Part shown: one piece after another, positions 2,832 to 53,438 of the stretch
Layout: each line of letters begins with the position of its first letter
How positions within the stretch are numbered: the stretch's first letter is position 1
NCBI GenBank assembly: GCA_963749075.1
Contig: CAVVLJ010000020.1
Span: 192,001 to 256,000, forward strand
DNA from: an uncultured Pseudomonadota bacterium
GTDB taxonomy: Bacteria; Pseudomonadota; Alphaproteobacteria; JACZXZ01
Length of the DNA: 64,000 bases
Direction of reading: 5' to 3'
Notes under the pieces: generated by a model
What the model saw: the letters and a program-made list of their open reading frames with translations, nothing else
The model's database searches: none
What the model was told of the DNA's origin: nothing
Program-made: the position numbers and the translations under genes

Positions 2832-3765
2832 CTAGCGCGCCGGCCAGGCGTTCATCACGGCAAGCGCCCTGAGCGTGTCGGTCATGGGGAAGGGCGACAC
2901 GCCGTGCGGCCCGAAATACTTGTCGTAGAGCTTCTGCCAGGCGCCGCTCGCGAAGAGTCCGACGATGGTGAGGTCGACGACGCGCTTGAACTTCGAGCTC
3001 TCGGGGCGCAGCGGGAAGGCCTGGAGGAAGGTGTTGATGCCGGGGTCGAAGACGCGCCACTTGGCGGGATCGCTCGCCTTGTCCTTGAGGCCGTAGAGGA
3101 TCGGCCCGTCCGAGCTGTAGCCGTCGACCGAGCCGGTCTCGAGCGCGGTGAAGCCCTGCGGGTGGTCGGGAAAGCCGATGGTGGTCACCGGCGGCTTGAG
3201 GCGGCCCTGGTCGCCGAGCGCGCGGTAGGCCGCCTCCTCGAGCCCGCCGCGCGGCACGCCGATGCGCTTGCCCGCGAGATCGTCGAGCGACTTGAGCCGG
3301 CTCGCCGCCGGCACCAGGACGAGGGTCGAGGTGAGGAAGTCGGGCACCGAGAAGTCCACCACCTTGATGCGCGCCTGGGTCACCACGGTAGCACCTGCCT
3401 CCATGTCGATGGTGCCGTTCTCGAGGAGCGGGATGCGCGTCTCGCTCGTGACGGGGATGTAATTGAGCTTGATCGAGCCGCCGAGCTCCTTCTCCAGGCC
3501 GGCATGGATGGCCTGGGCAATCTCGGTCGCGAAGCCGACGTAGTTGCCGGCCGCGTCCTTGTAGCCGTAGGGCGGCGTCGCCTCGCGCGCACCGAGATTG
3601 AAGCTGCCGGTGCGCTTGATGCGGTCGAGGGTGTCCTCGACGCAAGCCGCGGCTCCTTGCGCCGCGGCCGTGCGGGGCAGCAGCGTGCCTATGCCGAACT
3701 CCTGCCGATAGTGCGAGCAGCCGGCGCCGGCCAACCGCCTGGAAATCGCGCGATTGCTTGGTCAT
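2832..3765 (-). CDS. Amino acid ABC substrate-binding protein (GltI-like); frameshift near 3700 in the Tat signal peptide
   Basis: SBP_bac_3 motifs (PPYGY, RIPLLENGTID); GGAGG RBS + ATG 3765 + GRRRLL lie in a different frame from the mature domain. Confidence 0.82.
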
Positions 3766-3797
3766 TTTCGCCTCCCGTTTCGCTGTTGTCGTCACGC

Positions 3798-4541
3798 TCA
3801 GCCGAGAATGCGCGCGAGGAATTGCTGCGTCCGCGCGTGGCTCGGGTGCTCGAAGAACTCGGCGGCTCCGGCACGCTCGAGAATGCGCCCGTCCGCCATG
3901 AAAAGCACGCGGTCCGCCACCTCGCGCGCGAAGCGCATCTCGTGGCTCACGATCAGCATGGTCATGCCGTCGCGCGCGAGATCGCGGATGGCCTGCAGCA
4001 CCTCGCCCACCATCTCGGGGTCGAGTGCCGAGGTCGGCTCGTCGAACATCATGAGCTTGGGCTCGAGGATGAGGGCGCGGCAGATGGCGACGCGCTGCTG
4101 CTGGCCGCCCGAGAGCTCGGCGGGATATTTGGCGCGCTGGTCGTAGACGCCGAAGCGCGCCAGGAGCGCATCCGCCCTCTCCTCCGCCTCGGCGCGCGTC
4201 CAGCCGAGCACCTTGATCGGCGCCAGCGTCAGGTTCCTCATGCAGCTCATGTGCGGGTAAAGGTCGAATTGCTGGAACACCATGCCGATGCGCGCGCGCA
4301 GGTGCGGCAGGTCGGGTGCATGGCGCACGCTCGTGCCGTCGACGATGACGTCGCCCTCGGCGAAATGCTCGAGCCCGTTGGTGCAGCGCAGGAGCGAGCT
4401 CTTGCCCGAGCCGCTCGGTCCGCAGATGACGATGCGCTCGCCCGCGAAGACGCGCTCGCTCACGTCGTCGAGCGCCCGGAAGCCCCCGTAGCTCAGGCCG
4501 AGGTGGCGGTACTCGAGAAGCGGCGCGGCGGCTTCCGCCAT
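3798..4541 (-). CDS. Amino acid ABC ATP-binding protein
   Basis: GPSGSGKS, LSGGQQQR, FDEPTSALDPE. Confidence 0.95.
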   Translation of the reverse strand: MAEAAAPLLEYRHLGLSYGGFRALDDVSERVFAGERIVICGPSGSGKSSLLRCTNGLEHFAEGDVIVDGTSVRHAPDLPHLRARIGMVFQQFDLYPHMSCMRNLTLAPIKVLGWTRAEAEERADALLARFGVYDQRAKYPAELSGGQQQRVAICRALILEPKLMMFDEPTSALDPEMVGEVLQAIRDLARDGMTMLIVSHEMRFAREVADRVLFMADGRILERAGAAEFFEHPSHARTQQFLARILG

Positions 4542-4585
4542 GGCTCCGTCCTACGCCCCGTGCTCACAATAATTGCGGCGAGCGT

Positions 4586-4687
4586 CACCCCCTCCCCACC
4601 CTCCCCCTTCAAGGGGGAGGGGGACTTTTGGCGCTGCGCCCAACACTTCCCCTCCCCCCTTGAGGGGGAGGGTTAGGGTGGGGGGTG
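4586..4687. repeat. REP-like palindromic intergenic element, family A
   Basis: CACCCCCTCCCC...CTCCCCCTTCAAGGGGGAG / CTCCCCCCTTGAGGGGGAG...GGGGGTG inverted arms; related copies at 12646 and 38697. Confidence 0.85.
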
Positions 4688-4712
4688 TCCTACGCATCAA
4701 TGACTCCAGATA

Positions 4713-5975
4713 TCAGGCGAAGCGGTCCGCACGGAACGGTGCCAGGTCGAGCGAAGGCTCCCGCCCGGCCACGAGCTCGGCGATGAGCTTTCCCGTCATG
4801 GGTCCGCCGGTCATGCCGACGTGGCCGTGGCCGAACGCATAATGCACGTCGCCCGAGCGGCGCGACGGCCCGATGACGGGAAGCGAATCGGGCAGGCTCG
4901 GCCGGTGGCCCATCCAGAGCGAGAGGCGCTCCTCGGCATGCTCGGCGGCAAGGCCCGGGAAGAGGCGCCGGCCTTGCCGGAGCAGCACGCGGGCGCGCCG
5001 CCAGTCGGGCGGTGCGGCGAGCCCGGCGAGCTCGACCGTGCCGGCGAAGCGCAGGCCCTCCTCCATGGGCGTCGCCACGAATTTGCCCGAGGCGTCGCTC
5101 ACGGGAAGGCGCGGGGCGCTCTCCGGGTCGCGGATCATGAGGTGATAGCCGCGCTCGGTCTCGAGCGGCACGCGGTTGCCGAGCTCGGCCGCGAGCGGCC
5201 TGGAATAGGCGCCGGCCGCCACCACCGCGGCGTCGGCGGGAAGCTCGCCCGCATCGGTGCGGATGGCGCGGAGCCGCCGCCCCTCGAGCACGAAGCCGAG
5301 TGCCTGGCAGCGCACGACCCTGCCGCCCCGGCGCTCGAAGGCTTGCGCGAGAGCGGCAACGAGGCGGCCGGGATTGGTGGTATGGCCGTTGGCGGGCACG
5401 TGGATGCCGCGCACGAACTCGCGTGCGAGGCTGGGCTCGAGCTGGCGCAGCTCCTCGGCGCCGAGCTCCTCGAAGGCGATGCCGTTCCGCCGGCGGAGCT
5501 CCCAGGCCGCGTCGTCCTTGGCGCGCTCGGCCGCCGAGCGGTAGACCACGAGGTGGCCCAGGCGGCGCACCAGATCCTCCGCCCCCGCCTCCTTGACGAG
5601 CGGCTGCAGCACCTCGAGGCAGGGGCCGAGGAGGCCGCGGAGTGCCTTGGCCTGGGCCTCGACGCGCTCTCGCGTGCCGGCGCGGACGAAGCGCACGAGC
5701 CAGGGTGCCAGCGCCGGCAGATAACTCCAGCGGATGGCGAGCGGCCCAAGCGGATCGCTCAGCCACTTCGGCACGTTGCGCAAGGTGCCCGGCATCGACA
5801 TGGGCACGATCGAGGAGGGATTGAAGCAGCCCGCATTGCCGAAGGAGGCGCCCTCGCCGGGCGGCTTCGGGTCGATGACGAAGACCTCGTGACCGTCGCG
5901 TTGCAGGTAGCTCGCCGCGGCAATGCCCACCATGCCCGCGCCGATCACCCCGACCTTCTTCTTCTCCGCCGCCAT
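4713..5975 (-). CDS. FAD-dependent D-amino acid dehydrogenase family protein (DadA-like)
   Basis: GAGMVG, ASFGNAG, ERGYH, RPSLPDSLP, FGHGHVGMT. Confidence 0.9.
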   Translation of the reverse strand: MAAEKKKVGVIGAGMVGIAAASYLQRDGHEVFVIDPKPPGEGASFGNAGCFNPSSIVPMSMPGTLRNVPKWLSDPLGPLAIRWSYLPALAPWLVRFVRAGTRERVEAQAKALRGLLGPCLEVLQPLVKEAGAEDLVRRLGHLVVYRSAAERAKDDAAWELRRRNGIAFEELGAEELRQLEPSLAREFVRGIHVPANGHTTNPGRLVAALAQAFERRGGRVVRCQALGFVLEGRRLRAIRTDAGELPADAAVVAAGAYSRPLAAELGNRVPLETERGYHLMIRDPESAPRLPVSDASGKFVATPMEEGLRFAGTVELAGLAAPPDWRRARVLLRQGRRLFPGLAAEHAEERLSLWMGHRPSLPDSLPVIGPSRRSGDVHYAFGHGHVGMTGGPMTGKLIAELVAGREPSLDLAPFRADRFA

Positions 5976-47320: not shown

Positions 47321-47556
47321 TCGGACGGGCTCTTCAGTCCCGGGCAGATTGCCAGCGCGCTGCGCCCGATCGCGAGATCTCCAGCAGTTTCTTCGCGGCG
47401 CAGATCTCCATCGGGCGCCGGCGTCATCACGGCAGGCACCGCCCGCCGCCGGTAGCATGCTCTCTCGCGGCACAGAGAGCAATCCCGCGCGTCGGTAATG
47501 GTACAGTTTGAATTTCTGGGTCTCTCGCGCCCCGCTCCCCTCGTGACCGGAGCCGT

Positions 47557-47801: not shown

Positions 47802-48383
47802 TTAACTGCGCTTTGGGAGGAGCGGATTATCAGGTAAATTTGGAAGTGGCAGCGTCGGTATTACAAGTGCTGTGCCGGCCCCAAGACCGGGAAATGGGAA
47901 TAGCGGATTAGCAGCTCCCGCTGATTGTGGTTCCACCCGCAATGTTCCAAGTCTAATGATCTTATCGCCATAATCGGCGCGGACTTTAATTCGTCCCGCC
48001 TGAATCAAAATCATTGGTGACATAACAAACAGCGTGTTTATAGTGAAAAGCTCTGGCAAGTCTGGGTCAGGAGGCAGCGTAGTGGTCTTAAAAGTTTCGT
48101 CCACTGTCGCTTTATTAGCAGGAATTTCTCCGCCTACATTTGGTTTATCGGGGGCGTTACCGGGCAAGAAAATTTTGATTGTGATGCTCCAATCCCGATT
48201 TTCTGCCATTTTACGCGGTTCATTAAAGGTCGTCGCAATTCCGAACTTTGGCACCACCATTGGAAAAGCCGGCACGTAAATAACGGCGTTGTAAACGCCG
48301 ATGTAACTTGCCTTGTTACCAACCTCCGAACGAATGTCGTCACAAAAGATGGACGAGCCAAACGGTTCATCAAATTTGGACAT
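47802..48383 (-). CDS. DUF6941-like beta-rich protein
   Basis: IFCDDIRSEVGNKASYIGVY motif. Confidence 0.7.
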   Translation of the reverse strand: MSKFDEPFGSSIFCDDIRSEVGNKASYIGVYNAVIYVPAFPMVVPKFGIATTFNEPRKMAENRDWSITIKIFLPGNAPDKPNVGGEIPANKATVDETFKTTTLPPDPDLPELFTINTLFVMSPMILIQAGRIKVRADYGDKIIRLGTLRVEPQSAGAANPLFPFPGLGAGTALVIPTLPLPNLPDNPLLPKRS

Positions 48384-48387
48384 TTGT

Positions 48388-48840
48388 TCAGCCTGACGTA
48401 GGTGTCCCCAGCAGATCACTGTATGCAATGCCGGTGGCGCCCCTAGTGGTTAGCATTGCCGCGTTAGGACCCGTGATATAGATCACGGCTCCTGCTGATG
48501 ACGAGGATAACCAATCAGGGTGCCGATAATTGCGCGGAGGCTCCTCAAGGGGGTGGACGATACTGTATCCTGCTTCCGCATGCGAAATGGCAAAAAGCAG
48601 ATCGCTCAAGGTATCAAGGCCCCAATTGCCCGGCGCACCGATTAAACGACACACAACGTCTGGTCGCTTATTCATCCGACGCGCCAGTTCAGCCTGAGTA
48701 AGGCCGCTCTTCTTGAATTCATTCAGCACAAGATCATGCACGCGGCTCCTGTTCCTAGCCTGAAAATAGGCGAACTCCCAAGCCGGGATCGCCCCTGTTC
48801 CCGTGGGGCTAAACGGGCTCAAAGTTGGAGAGGTAGTCAT
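48388..48840 (-). CDS. XRE/HigA-like HTH protein with a C-terminal extension
   Basis: SGLTQAELARRMNKRPDVVCRLIGAPGNWGLDTLSDL. Confidence 0.8.
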   Translation of the reverse strand: MTTSPTLSPFSPTGTGAIPAWEFAYFQARNRSRVHDLVLNEFKKSGLTQAELARRMNKRPDVVCRLIGAPGNWGLDTLSDLLFAISHAEAGYSIVHPLEEPPRNYRHPDWLSSSSAGAVIYITGPNAAMLTTRGATGIAYSDLLGTPTSG

Positions 48841-49336
48841 TGAGGCTGGCTCCGTGGAACGGTTGATGTGGATGAAAGAGATTCCTCCATCTGGCCTTAC
48901 ATCGTTCGATCTCATCGCGCCAATCTTTGTCTTCAGCCAAATTCTCCCGAAAGTTAACGGTCAGCGCCACGAATAGATCTTTATCTGCAAAGCCACCAAG
49001 CACTCTGATCCCCGGTTTCGGATCAACGCATCGAATATCAAAAATGTCGTCCCTGGGCGGGTCTGTCCGTGCGACCCGGGTGGCCTTTGGCTTCTTATAG
49101 GGATCGTCGGCGACGGTTATGCGATCCCCCTGGGTCCAGGCATCCAAATAGGCTCGCATCTGCGTTAGCCGCCGTCCCTCTGTTGTCACCGGCCATGGCG
49201 GGTGTGCGACCTTATTGACCTCCTCGGAAACAAACAGCTCCCGTATCACCTTAGCGCTCGGAATGAGCGGCGGCAGGAAGAACAGCCGAGGAGGCACCTC
49301 GCTGACACGGTTATTGATTCCATCGCGTATTGACAT
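48809..49336 (-). CDS. Putative RelE/HigB-like toxin
   Basis: IFDIRCVDPKPGIRVLGGFADKDLFVAL beta-meander; overlaps the downstream HTH gene. Confidence 0.55.
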   Translation of the reverse strand: MSIRDGINNRVSEVPPRLFFLPPLIPSAKVIRELFVSEEVNKVAHPPWPVTTEGRRLTQMRAYLDAWTQGDRITVADDPYKKPKATRVARTDPPRDDIFDIRCVDPKPGIRVLGGFADKDLFVALTVNFRENLAEDKDWRDEIERCKARWRNLFHPHQPFHGASLNDYLSNFEPV

Positions 49337-49346
49337 ATAAGTCAAT
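49329..49346. promoter_or_regulatory. Putative operator overlapping the toxin start
   Basis: ATTGAC-N6-GTCAAT perfect inverted repeat. Confidence 0.6.
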
Positions 49347-50465: not shown

Positions 50466-51332
50466 ATGCTGAAGCGGCTGTTAAAAGCTTTTTGGGTTGC
50501 CTTGTTCGCGTGTCTGGTGCTCGGATACGTCTCTCTGGTTTGGTATGCATCACAAGCGCCCGGGTCATCGCAATACGAACGCCGCACCTACCATACCAAT
50601 GAAAAAGCCGGCCAGCGCAACCCACCCCAAACCCTTTGGGAATGGGTGACGCATGACGCAATAGCTGTCTTCACTTTCTTCCTGGCCGCCTTTACCGGCG
50701 CGCTCTTCTGGGTTTCCATCATTGAAATGCGATACCTGAGACGCGCCGATAAGACGGCACGGAAACTCGCGAAAATCACCAAACAACAGACTGCTATTTT
50801 GGCCGCTCAAGCCGATATCGCATTGAAGCAGCATGAACTCGAGCGCTTGCAGTTTATCGCCGACAAGAGGCCGAGATTGCGCATCCGGAACGTTGTTGTG
50901 AGGCCGGCAAGCGTCACGGGCTATGAGCCGACCCTTTTCCATCCCGGACAATATGTCGGTGGTCAATGCTATATCGCCAACTCTGGAGGCATCGACGCTG
51001 TTGTTGTGGAGGCTCACTGTGAGGTCTTTGTGACTAACGTTCAGCTGCCAATGGAAAGGCCCTACGAAGGGAAAAACGGCAATTCGGCGATCCGCCCAAC
51101 GATTCCTCCCGGCGGTTCTGTGCCATTCCCATTTCAGAGCGATACCATTATCAGCGAACACCAGTCGCAGGCGGTCAGGAACGGCATTGGTTATCGGCTT
51201 TACTTGCTTGGATGGGTTGAATACGAAGACATCAAGGGAGTGCGAAGACGTACTGCGTTCTGCAGGAAATATGATGCCGCCACCGGTCGCTTCGCCGCAG
51301 TAGATGACCCCGATTACGAACACGAAGAATAG
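50466..51332 (+). CDS. Hypothetical membrane-anchored cargo protein
   Basis: Two TM segments, a coiled coil and a beta-rich C-terminal domain. Confidence 0.7.
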   Translation: MLKRLLKAFWVALFACLVLGYVSLVWYASQAPGSSQYERRTYHTNEKAGQRNPPQTLWEWVTHDAIAVFTFFLAAFTGALFWVSIIEMRYLRRADKTARKLAKITKQQTAILAAQADIALKQHELERLQFIADKRPRLRIRNVVVRPASVTGYEPTLFHPGQYVGGQCYIANSGGIDAVVVEAHCEVFVTNVQLPMERPYEGKNGNSAIRPTIPPGGSVPFPFQSDTIISEHQSQAVRNGIGYRLYLLGWVEYEDIKGVRRRTAFCRKYDAATGRFAAVDDPDYEHEE

Positions 51333-51388
51333 GATGGCGCCGCGCGACGTTCGGGGAATTCGGCATAATTGTCGAAACTGACCCACTA

Positions 51389-53294
51389 GTGCGCCAGGAA
51401 GCTGGCGTGATCCAGCCGGTGAAAGTCCGGCCCAGGTAAGGGGTAGCGCCCGCCTGGTAGCGAGTGTTGCGCTGTGGAAGGCAACGACCACGGCGAAGCG
51501 TACACAGCGATTGTGCGGGGTGGGCTATTGAGCCGCGTAAGCAGTAATGTCGGAGGGGCCGAGGCTTTTAGTGTAGCCGAAGGCAACATGTGCGGCGCCG
51601 CTATGCGAGGCGCCGTCGCCCTACCGAGGTCGAAGACCCCATCACGCACAAAGGGAGCCCGCCGGAACCTGGGAGATCCCACGTCCGGCCAGCGGCGACA
51701 AGCCGCCCTGGTCCGCATCGGGAAGGCGAGGAGCCGTAGCCGATGACGCACGGGCGCGGGAAGTCAGACTCCGCCATAGTAGCTGGGAAGCCGACGAACA
51801 AGGCCGGGCAATCGGTTGCGGAGCCGGTGGAGCGAAGGGCGGAGGCCAAGGGGAATGCGGGCCAGCACAGCACGCGCCGGGCACAGGACCGGGAAAGCGT
51901 GTCCCATGCGCTGGATCGCATACGACAAGCGGCAAGGCAAAGGAAGAAGGAACGGTTCACCTCGCTCTTCCACCATATCACCATCAGCCTGCTCCGGCTG
52001 GCGTTCTTCGCGCTCAAGCGAGACGCCATGCCCGGCGTAGACGGGTTGACATGGCAGGACTACGAGGCAGACCTCGAGTGCAAGCTCGAGGACCTGCACG
52101 CACGGGTCCGCCGGGGAGCGTATCGGGCACTGCCGTCCCGGCGACGGTACATACCGAAACCGGACGGCCGGCAGCGCCCGCTCGCGGTCGCCGCCCTCGA
52201 GGACAAGATCGTCCAACGGGCGACCATCGCGGTGCTGAACGCGATCTACGAGGAGGACTTCCTCGGGTTCTCGTATGGCTTCCGGCCACGGCGCGGCCAG
52301 CACGATGCGCTGGACGCACTGGCGGTCGGGCTCACCAGCAAGAAGGTGAACTACGTTCTCGATGCGGACATCCGGTCCTTTTTCGACGCGGTCGATCAAA
52401 CATGGCTCGTCCGCTTCTTGGAGAACCGGATCAGTGACCCGCGTATCATCCGCCTGATCCAGAAATGGCTCAAGGCGGGCATCCTGGAAGACGGGGTCGT
52501 GACGGTGAGTGAGAGGGGGACGGGACAGGGCTCGGTGGCATCACCGCTCCTTGCCAACGTCTACCTGCACTACGTCTTCGACCTCTGGGCCGAGCGCTGG
52601 CGACGGCGCGAGGCACAGGGCGATATGATCATCGTGCGCTATGCGGACGACATCGTTGTCGGCTTCGAGCGTGAGGCCGACGCCCGACGCTTCTGGGAGG
52701 CGATGCGGGAGCGGTTGCAGGAGTTCTCGCTGACGCTGCATCCGGAAAAGACCCGCCTGATCGAGTTTGGCCGCCATGCCGCGGCCGAGCGCAAGCAGCG
52801 CGGGCTCGGTAAACCGGAAACCTTCAACTTCCTAGGCTTCACCTTCCTCTGCGGTAAATCGCGCCGCGGGAACTTCCTCCTCAAGCGGAAGACCCGGCGT
52901 GACCGCATGGTGGCCAAGCTCAAGGAGGTAAAGGGCGAACTGCGGCGGCGGATGCATCAGCCCATCCCGGTGCAAGGGACGTGGCTGCGGCAGGTCGTCA
53001 CCGGCTTCTTTGGCTATCACGCAGTGCCGACAAACTTCCCGGCACTTGCGGCCTTCCGGCGCCATGTCACCGGCCTCTGGCGGCGCACGCTCCGGCGGCG
53101 CAGCCAGAAGGACGGCTCGACCTGGGGACGGATCGAGAAGCTGGCCGACGACTTTCTCCCAAAACCCCGCATCCTTCACCCCTGGCCGAGCAAGCGCTTC
53201 GCCGTCAAACACCCGAGGTGGGAGCCGTATGCGGGAAATCCGCCCGTACGGATCTGTGCGGGGGGCGCCCAGTAATGGGCGTCCCTACCGCGAT
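51389..53294 (+). mobile_element. Group II intron
   Basis: 5' GTGCG; domain V GAGCCGTATGCGGGAAATCCGCCCGTACGGATC; domain VI hairpin with bulged A; 3' end AT; encodes an RT. Confidence 0.93.
51743..53275 (+). CDS. ltrA: Group II intron reverse transcriptase/maturase, no HNH domain
   Basis: IPKPDGRQRPL, SYGFRP, DADIRSFFD, GQGSVASPLLANVYL, RYADD, FNFLGF. Confidence 0.95.
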   Translation: MTHGRGKSDSAIVAGKPTNKAGQSVAEPVERRAEAKGNAGQHSTRRAQDRESVSHALDRIRQAARQRKKERFTSLFHHITISLLRLAFFALKRDAMPGVDGLTWQDYEADLECKLEDLHARVRRGAYRALPSRRRYIPKPDGRQRPLAVAALEDKIVQRATIAVLNAIYEEDFLGFSYGFRPRRGQHDALDALAVGLTSKKVNYVLDADIRSFFDAVDQTWLVRFLENRISDPRIIRLIQKWLKAGILEDGVVTVSERGTGQGSVASPLLANVYLHYVFDLWAERWRRREAQGDMIIVRYADDIVVGFEREADARRFWEAMRERLQEFSLTLHPEKTRLIEFGRHAAAERKQRGLGKPETFNFLGFTFLCGKSRRGNFLLKRKTRRDRMVAKLKEVKGELRRRMHQPIPVQGTWLRQVVTGFFGYHAVPTNFPALAAFRRHVTGLWRRTLRRRSQKDGSTWGRIEKLADDFLPKPRILHPWPSKRFAVKHPRWEPYAGNPPVRICAGGAQ

Positions 53295-53438
53295 CCCGCG
53301 CGTCCGCCTTGGGATGGCGGCGGCTTCCGGCGATTGTCCGAAAAGCGTCATGGGCGGCCCTGCCGGAAAGCGGCCTCATGTCCGCAAACCAGCCATCGCA
53401 GGCATGGCGGCCGAAACCCCGCCCTGCCATGCGAGTTT

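Follow-up and report, generated by a model that had tools for sequence, protein, structure and literature searches.

A group II intron in an uncultured alphaproteobacterium that probably homes to the inverted-repeat tips of IS1-family elements

Why should a group II intron lie two nucleotides inside the very tip of a transposon? The question is raised by a 64,000-nt stretch of DNA, referred to here as the window (positions 192,001 to 256,000 of contig CAVVLJ010000020.1, assembly GCA_963749075.1, from an uncultured bacterium of the class Alphaproteobacteria), in which an intron separates the last two bases of one terminal inverted repeat (IR) of an IS1-family insertion sequence (IS) from the rest of that repeat. 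The answer that we favor, with a probability of a little under nine in ten, is that the element is an active mobile intron of the IIB type, encoding a reverse transcriptase (RT)/maturase without an endonuclease domain, and that its natural homing site would be the outer IR tip of a subgroup of IS1-family elements. The locus had been described before in a reading made without database searches (the sequence-only reading), and all the coordinates given there, including those of the IR and of the target duplication CGCGCGTC, were confirmed in the sequence.

The intron combines a IIB-type domain I (D1) with domains V and VI (D5/D6) and an RT/maturase that has no endonuclease domain. Positions 51422-51639 match the Rfam model RF02005 (group II D1-D4, model positions 1-225) at 164 bits against a cut-off of 49, and the alignment to RF00029 reaches the last model position, ending at the intron end, 53294. 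The boundary consensus, 5' GUGYG and 3' AY, is satisfied by GTGCG at 51389 and ...GAT at 53294. The intron-encoded protein (IEP), lying in domain IV, scores 334 bits (cut-off 300) with TIGR04416, the model for group II intron reverse transcriptase/maturase, and its open reading frame (ORF) is open in 3/3 genomic copies of the intron; since RVT_1 is the sole Pfam domain, no endonuclease domain was found in it. A regular-expression search of the IEP gave no match to LX3AX3PXLF[V/A]HW, which PMC4615759 gives as the signature of class D at the C-terminus; the equivalent stretch is PRILHPW. From its sequence it is established that the protein is not of class D, and PMC3552965 and PMC3522654 gave no assignment to a named ORF class. 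The junctions at 51388/53295, as first read from the sequence, agree with the Rfam ends, with the exact 1906 nt that three genomic copies share, with ...CACTACC sites that stand uninterrupted in the same genome, and with the EBS3 pairing described below.

How such an intron could find an IR tip was read from its relatives. Of at least 552 relatives of the IEP in the genome collection the best 80 were used (72-81% amino-acid identity), leaving out 13 loci without a recognizable motif or flank and 8 without a usable 5' end; 60 introns (59 relatives and that of the window) had the 5' junction and both loops located, and gave 37 distinct combinations of the exon-binding sites EBS1 and EBS2. As a control, exons were shuffled 2000 times among the introns. 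Over the 37 specificities the EBS1 loop pairs with the last six exon bases at 201/222 positions (shuffle mean 97, maximum 127), and the 5-mer equivalent to 51542-51546 pairs with exon positions -12..-8 at 122/185 (shuffle mean 69.5, maximum 93). Covariation across relatives proves both sites, and the hairpin and the CAGT motif both sit at variable loop or internal-loop positions of the Rfam model. The TAGTG loop, taken for EBS1 in the sequence-only reading, does lie at the EBS1 position, where UAGUGU (51569-51574) makes up the last six bases of an 8-nt loop (51567-51574). For EBS2 the proposed site, CAGT at 51542-51545, held, and it was the register that needed correction, being shifted by one base relative to most relatives; nine introns, the window's and eight others, fit an EBS2 register one base further upstream, with a 2-nt linker. 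The EBS3 column is Watson-Crick complementary to exon position +1 in 46/46 distinct introns, the runner-up column reaching 28/46.

In the window intron EBS1 forms five pairs with CACUA, with a C-U mismatch at -6 (the metagenome consensus ACACUA, see below, gives six pairs), EBS2 four with exon -12..-9 and EBS3 one, and the positions that the intron RNA reads, -12..-9, -5..-1 and +1, are all within the IR. In the more distant relatives, whose IEPs are 72-81% identical, the targets are different and the EBS have changed to match, and when the same EBS1 loop was searched for in 150 related genomes only the window's own genome was found to have it.

That genome holds three full copies of the intron, on contigs C20 (the copy in the window), C17 and C4, and a 57-nt 5' fragment on C16. 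The full copies differ by 1-3 of 1906 nt (99.8-99.95% identity) and have identical ends; their 5' flanks are GAAACTGACCCACTA, CAAACGGTGCCACTA and CAAACTGACCCACTA, each followed by CC and then by unrelated DNA, while the fragment is preceded by CAAACCGAGACTA. All four junctions abut IS1-type IR tips of otherwise divergent elements. The host on C4 is a 1.98-kb derivative with an IR pair of its own, a target duplication of 7/8 bases (8/8 on C20) and a transposase cut at about residue 150, and its identity to the C20 element is no more than 70-80%, seen in short stretches; the C17 host is reduced to a C-terminal remnant of the transposase. On C4 the intron occupies the left-type end (IRL), next to the small companion gene orf74, and on C20 the right-type end (IRR).

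It might be argued that the intron entered a single IS once and that the joined unit then spread by transposition, in which case the link to the IR would reflect nothing but the mobility of the IS; a target duplication outside the CC is also expected of such a unit. We have rejected this explanation, which seems to us highly improbable, because near-identical introns lie in strongly different hosts, a truncated transposase on C4 and a remnant on C17, and because the EBS/IBS (intron-binding site) covariation throughout the family shows RNA-guided targeting. Moreover, the IR sequences themselves differ among the copies, different ends are occupied, and the 51 distinct metagenome contexts described below have only about 19 nt in common. 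Near-identical introns in divergent hosts show instead that the intron entered pre-existing, diverged IS copies singly, which rules out simple hitch-hiking. The recency of this movement is deduced solely from the three copies, 1-3 nt apart in divergent hosts. As far as comparison of sequences can show such things, the choice of the IR tip is RNA-guided, mobility has been independent and recent, and both types of IS end have been used.

Further relatives were sought in metagenome contigs by a scan whose sole criterion was the EBS1 hairpin together with its conserved neighbors. In all, 91 stretches matched and 80 became loci, of which the 66 with at least 20 nt of 5' flank gave 51 distinct flanks. 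Base -1 is A in 51/51 flanks and bases -2 to -5 (T, C, A, C) are each found in 48/51. The flank consensus is TTCAAACTGAGACACTA^CC (here and below the caret marks the insertion site); it holds from -17 to -1, conservation decays further upstream, and the 3' exon starts with CC in 19/22 readable loci and then diverges. In addition, 29 IS loci whose transposases are 49-64% identical to that of the window were collected from further genomes of the class. Ends like GGTAGTGTCTCAGTTTGAA were found in 27 of them; the eight in which both ends were found are elements of 1.4-3.2 kb, and seven of the eight have 8-bp direct repeats outside GG...CC. The metagenome 5'-exon consensus TTCAAACTGAGACACTA is the exact reverse complement of the IR consensus GGTAGTGTCTCAGTTTGAA of these elements. 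It had been proposed from the sequence that the lineage targets the conserved IR of this transposon family. The four genomic junctions, the CACTA of the metagenome flanks and the identity of the motif with the IS1-family IR bear this out; introns with this EBS1 share one type of flank, and its motif is the IR of IS1-family elements that encode homologues of the window transposase.

It is very doubtful, and we have rejected the idea, that the target is a generic short motif, for instance a REP-like (repetitive extragenic palindromic) repeat, whose likeness to an IS end is fortuitous and which is not functionally connected with IS1. Although transposases and partner IRs were seldom seen within reach of the metagenome copies, as such a motif would lead one to expect, the consensus matches exactly the IR of complete IS1-family copies with 8-bp duplications, conservation ends precisely at the CC, which is the tip of the IS, and the copies in the window and on C4 lie in bounded elements with target duplications. 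In addition, the intron of metagenome loci L114, L128 and the L102 group is preceded, at a distance of 40-65 nt, by the C-terminus of a transposase, and orf74 is found upstream of the intron in L110 and L126.

The metagenome introns are 75-91% identical to the window intron (median 84%), so that the association with the IR is old. A FastTree phylogeny was built from 88 rows of the ORF region, rooted at the midpoint and with branch support of the local kind only. The IS1-IR label requires five changes on this tree, and well-supported branches force at least three of them; shuffled labels average 28. All 36 IS1-IR rows fall in one 53-row part of the tree, alongside 17 introns of other specificity; since the two groups came from different collections, the tree is read only as indicating that the specificity is old and clustered.

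Several observations weigh against homing to the ends of IS1 elements. An IS1 transposase was detected near few metagenome introns, at 8/80 loci by tblastn and at 3/80 by profile, and among 103 upstream ORFs at 36 loci no IS1 family was found in the 25 most frequent Pfam families (of 45 matched), which are those of ordinary genes and of other IS families. A partner IR was present in only 5/53 distinct contexts, at 31, 31, 96, 96 and 476 bp, as in miniature inverted-repeat transposable elements (MITEs). The small number of partner IRs implies that many targets are solo or MITE-like IRs, or else that the contigs are too short (median upstream length about 0.5 kb). Many homes of the intron are probably solo, miniature or decayed IS1 ends, and the scarcity of neighboring transposases and partner IRs may partly be an effect of assembly, contigs being short and breaking in repeats.

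Within the genome, the transposase is intact at only one of the four host sites, IBS2 of the C17 copy contains one mismatch, and eight ...CACTA^CC sites are uninterrupted, including one (C17:250513) with perfect IBS1, IBS2 and IBS3; at these eight, IBS2 is perfect once, needs a G-U pair once and has mismatches in six cases. The GC skew per 50 kb changes sign irregularly on C20, C17 and C21 and is too noisy a guide to a strand bias relative to replication; the apparent position of 3/3 occupied sites on the G-rich strand, when 100-200 kb are taken together, is for this reason unreliable. Finally, a search of sequencing runs gave 20 that share words with the stretch (15 DNA and 5 RNA libraries, all labeled soil or peat), most of them sharing only a small portion. 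Contigs of four soil or peat metatranscriptomes cover solely the intron part 51396-53296, at 88-99% likeness, with both exons at zero depth; as the exons are uncovered and no joint at 51388/53295 was seen, these four give no RNA support for splicing.

A number of the metagenome homes are of interest in themselves. In L133 and L172 the intron lies in a 31-bp palindrome, GGTAGTGTCTCACTTAAACTGAGACACTA^CC, consisting of two abutting IS1-type IRs and nothing else, and the 96-bp element of L111 and L117 and the 476-bp element of L164 look like miniature IS1 derivatives. In peat metatranscriptome contigs (X16 and X17, depths 82 and 216) an ORF-less relative of the intron was seen, linking about 51799 to 53195 of the window with 136 other letters between; DNA carry-over is possible in this case.

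Other sub-lineages of the intron were met as well. Metagenome contig L137 (1-2069) contains an IS1-IR-type intron (flank ACACTA) followed directly, without the CC, by the 5' end of an intron of the GTGCGCCGGGAGACCGGCAAGG sub-lineage, so that two introns lie head to tail at one site. Another sub-lineage is found at ...GGGGTAGA(C/G)CGGA^AGT in many different metagenome-assembled genomes (genome loci L041, L048, L050, L051, L064, L065, L075, L076, L084-L086, L091 and L092); flanks of this CGGA^AGT type diverge a few bases past the site, which may be the end of another repeated element. The intron of Azospirillum canadense (L019) is situated near the end of a 132-bp inverted-repeat element, and at L043-L045 a partner repeat lies 130-300 nt downstream. 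Among 40 loci of the other sub-lineages, two had a partner IR upstream and four had one downstream, as against 1 in a shuffled control, which is too few for a clade-wide claim. The closest plasmid-borne relative by its IEP (76% identity; L193, Aminobacter sp. SR38 plasmid pSR4, locus 3640-5550) is flanked by two Tnp3-family transposase/resolvase modules.

Under RNA-guided homing to the IR tip, the intron RNA would recognize the DNA strand that runs outward from the IS by means of three pairings, EBS2 with -12..-9, EBS1 with -5..-1 and EBS3 with +1, and would integrate between ...CACTA and the last two bases of the IR, CC. Both ends of an IS offer such a site, the IRR-type being occupied in the window and the IRL-type on C4, and the intron entered independently into IS copies already present and diverged, not riding with one IS. 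The left IR of the window element had been thought able to pair with EBS1 through one wobble, and read outward, as ...CATTA^CC, it could indeed do so with one G-U pair. Insertion would presumably proceed by reverse splicing, after which a 3' end of the host DNA (the nascent strand) would prime reverse transcription, as in RmInt1 and RmInt2 (PMC4615759). The layout further suggests that the intron may be co-transcribed by read-through from the IS genes (transposase, orf288); promoter-like sites are present upstream of the transposase gene, and no terminator-like site was found between the transposase gene or orf288 and the intron.

In introns with an active endonuclease, reverse transcription is primed by a cut at about +9/+10. 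It is conceivable, if unlikely, that in this lineage the transposase replaces the missing endonuclease and that the intron invades an IS end during or just after transposition, independent of passing replication forks. The 8-nt staggered gap present after strand transfer would leave the top strand single-stranded from +3 to +10, with the 3'-OH of the bottom-strand target just past +10. Such a route would agree with an insertion 2 nt from the tip, facing outward and with the 8-bp duplication directly after it, as well as with an IEP without an endonuclease domain, a 3' exon that is unconstrained past +2 and the use of both IS ends. The argument is, however, one of geometry; priming at replication forks, shown for RmInt1 and RmInt2 (PMC4615759), fits the data equally well, and the intron often occupies solo or degenerate IRs that have no transposase near, though these could have been mobilized in trans. 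Were this route true, any newly inserted IS would provide a homing site ready for use, entry of the intron would sterilize that IS end, and the lineage would act against IS1 elements in soil bacteria as a brake both specific and able to spread by itself.

The layout has a predicted cost for the host element: the intron puts 1.9 kb between the cleavage tip (CC) and the part of the IR to which the transposase binds, and this would disable that IS end. It is plausible that the transposon has been immobilized by the intron, and the two are separate and probably antagonistic elements.

The host element itself is a 3.9-kb IS1-family transposon of low GC content, lying in an island of 50-61% GC as against 65-74% around it (Table 1). 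The IRL sequence GGTAATGGTACAGTTTGA at 47494-47511 is a single match in the window, where 0.01 would be expected by chance, and IRL has four mismatches to the family consensus GGTAGTGTCTCAGTTTGAA. On the other side, the 5' exon end GAAACTGACCCACTA occupies 51374-51388, and IRR holds IBS2, ACTG (51377-51380), and IBS1, CACTA (51384-51388). With the intron removed, the right boundary reads ...TCGAAACTGACCCACTA^CC, an imperfect inverse of IRL, 14/19 positions agreeing between IRL and the reverse complement of IRR; no further IR-like site was found within the element. The left flank reads CCCGCGCGTC, in which 10 bases match on two sides, making the length of the duplication ambiguous. Because IS copies elsewhere have GG/CC tips and 8-bp repeats, the CC was assigned to the IR, the duplication was taken as 8 bp and the intron as lying 2 nt inside the right end. 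The ends of IS1-family elements carry the signature GGnnnTG (ISfinder), and their target duplications measure 8-9 bp. Both ends in the window fit the signature, GGTAATG on the left and GGTAGTG on the right, the consensus of the other genomes being GGTAGTG.

Table 1. Features of the intron and of its host transposon in the window.
Feature	Start	End	Strand	Basis or remark
Target-site duplication, left copy, 8 bp CGCGCGTC	47486	47493	.	identical to 53297-53304
Left inverted repeat (IRL) GGTAATGGTACAGTTTGAA, intron-free	47494	47512	+	
orf74, small basic protein, companion gene conserved in the IS1 subgroup	47571	47795	+	ORF; no Pfam family
Cargo gene, DUF6941 protein, 208 aa	47802	48428	-	PF22091, 32.3 bits; no PADLOC match
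Cargo gene, putative helix-turn-helix (HTH) regulator, 175 aa	48388	48915	-	PHROG 1373 'transcriptional regulator', E 4e-6
Cargo gene, 178 aa	48809	49345	-	no family in Pfam, PADLOC or PHROG scans
IS1-family DDE transposase, single ORF, 329 aa from TTG	49427	50416	+	PF03400, NF033558
orf288, putative membrane protein between transposase and IRR	50466	51332	+	ORF; no family found
Right inverted repeat (IRR), inner 17 nt, end of 5' exon	51372	51388	+	
Group II intron, complete, 1906 nt, GTGCG...CCGCGAT	51389	53294	+	Rfam matches, genomic copies
EBS2 (CAGU), domain I internal loop UAAGCAGUAAUGUC	51542	51545	+	Rfam alignment position
EBS1 hairpin GGCT-TTTAGTGT-AGCC (RNA GGCU-UUUAGUGU-AGCC)	51563	51578	+	Rfam alignment, covariation
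EBS3 (G), pairs with IBS3, C at 53295	51632	51632	+	covariation column
Intron-encoded RT/maturase (IEP), 510 aa, YADD present	51743	53275	+	TIGR04416, RVT_1
Domains V and VI of the ribozyme	53220	53294	+	RF00029, 50.3 bits, cut-off 40, model 1-77/77
IRR terminal CC, first 2 nt of 3' exon	53295	53296	+	
Target-site duplication, right copy, 8 bp CGCGCGTC	53297	53304	.	

The transposase matches PF03400 at 33.8 bits (cut-off 24.1), over residues 210-250 only, and NF033558 at 71 bits, under the cut-off of 100; it covers profile positions 2-283/287 without a stop. At least 8000 homologues exist, many labeled 'IS1 family transposase' at the source (JGI, NCBI), and the close ones carry PF03400. The database copy of the protein starts later and has 316 aa. 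The window transposase is of a single-ORF form, whereas IS1 itself has the two-frame InsAB.

The usual layout of the family is IR-orf74-transposase-IR, to which the window element adds three genes between orf74 and the transposase gene, and orf288 after it. Homologues of orf74 adjoin the IR in 15/29 IS loci of other genomes and in 2/80 metagenome loci (tblastn); the protein carries ...KGGKARAAKLSKERRKEIA..., and the start of the gene lies some 60-80 nt from the IR at the end away from the transposase, in the window as in IS loci L195-L220. The 178-aa cargo protein has a 49% identical homologue in IS locus L196, where homologues of the HTH regulator and of the 178-aa gene co-occur, and the regulator gave a weak match to PDC-M64C in PADLOC (E 3e-4). 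For the four passenger genes (47802-49345 and 50466-51332) no convincing match to a defense-system or phage family was found. The product of orf288 is probably a membrane protein, and no homologue of it was found in the other IS loci examined.

The source genome also contains a second group II intron family, of five copies (C2:107649, C4:504789, C22:3, C17:863454(-) and C21:567804), with weak RF02005 matches of 49-56 bits. Every copy starts with GTGTGCGCCGTGACAAGG, and in two of them a D5-like motif follows the start after only about 0.67 kb, suggesting ORF-less forms. The 5' flanks end in GG, some after GC-rich hairpins, which resembles terminator-type targeting.

If the window intron homes as proposed, it is a parasite specialized on another parasite, and its relatives in soil would be likewise. 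The 51 natural target variants, together with the table of EBS covariation, provide a specificity map for a IIB intron that lacks an endonuclease. A site 2 nt from the cleavage tip predicts that the intron disables the IS end, and cargo-carrying IS1 transposons would then be frozen in place, which could contribute to the many solo and decayed IS1 ends. The lineage may also serve as a natural system for asking whether intermediates of transposition can prime retrohoming.

The literature consulted, in which the supplementary maps of RmInt2 were not covered, held no report of group II introns at IS1-family IRs, and the sole case of homing to IRs was that of RmInt2 in ISRm17. That RmInt2 uses the IRs of an IS had been stated in the sequence-only reading, and it is confirmed in PMC4615759: all seven copies in Sinorhizobium meliloti GR4 lie in IRs of ISRm17 (Martinez-Rodriguez et al. 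2014, PMC4615759; review PMC5894124). As described there (PMC4615759), RmInt2 is likewise a IIB intron without an endonuclease, whose EBS1, EBS2 and EBS3 recognize the IR of an IS that offers two sites on opposite strands, and its EBS2 register, like that of the window intron, is displaced by one base and leaves a 2-nt linker, four EBS2 pairs being enough. In both systems the copies within the host genome are near-identical. Its authors point out that homing to the IR provides twice as many sites, one of which is certain to be on the lagging-strand template (PMC4615759), and this rationale, of a harmless multicopy target with one site always on the favored strand, fits the window lineage too.

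The two systems differ in other respects. Over residues 83-369 the window IEP is 37% identical to that of RmInt2 and 35% to that of RmInt1, and it is without the class D signature, which belongs to the class of these two introns. The target here is of the IS1 family and that of RmInt2 is ISRm17, and the EBS3-IBS3 pair is U-A in RmInt2 and G-C here. Four copies of RmInt2 on pRmeGR4c, recognized by their copy number, a GAAU-capped D6 and A at +1 (PMC4615759), were analyzed. They share only about 16-19 nt upstream, while on the downstream side two of them are 99.6% identical for more than 1 kb; RmInt2 therefore lies about 16-20 nt inside the IS end, facing inward, whereas the window intron lies 2 nt from the tip and faces outward. 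RmInt2, furthermore, is known from one strain, and the window lineage was found in 51 distinct metagenome contexts.

Group IIC-attC introns are reportedly specialized on a recombination site of mobile DNA. Class C introns in general, like the window lineage, specialize not on a gene but on recombination or structural sites of mobile DNA or on terminators; they are described, however, as being without EBS2 and as recognizing a stem-loop (PMC3522654), while the window intron reads a linear sequence with EBS1, EBS2 and EBS3. RmInt1 in ISRm2011-2 and other IS-borne bacterial group II introns are also retroelements inside a mobile element, and the insertion of RmInt1 blocks the spread of its IS (review PMC5894124). 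These introns, though, sit in the body or ORF of the IS (PMC5894124, PMC3522654, PMC7306698), whereas the window intron is found in the terminal repeat, and RmInt1 is of class D. IStrons, in which a group I intron is fused to an IS of the IS200/605 type, present another physical tie between intron and IS, but an IStron is one chimeric element moved by the IS transposase (PMC4227781), while the window intron is a separate element that would move by reverse transcription.

After RmInt2, the window lineage would be a second natural example, independent of the first and far better sampled, of homing by a group II intron to the terminal IR of an IS. As another IEP class and apparently another IS family are involved, homing to IRs appears to be recurrent and not the oddity of one Sinorhizobium strain. 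Homing to an IR has already been published; what is new here is the other class of IEP, the IS1-family target and a geometry in which the intron lies close to the tip and faces outward.

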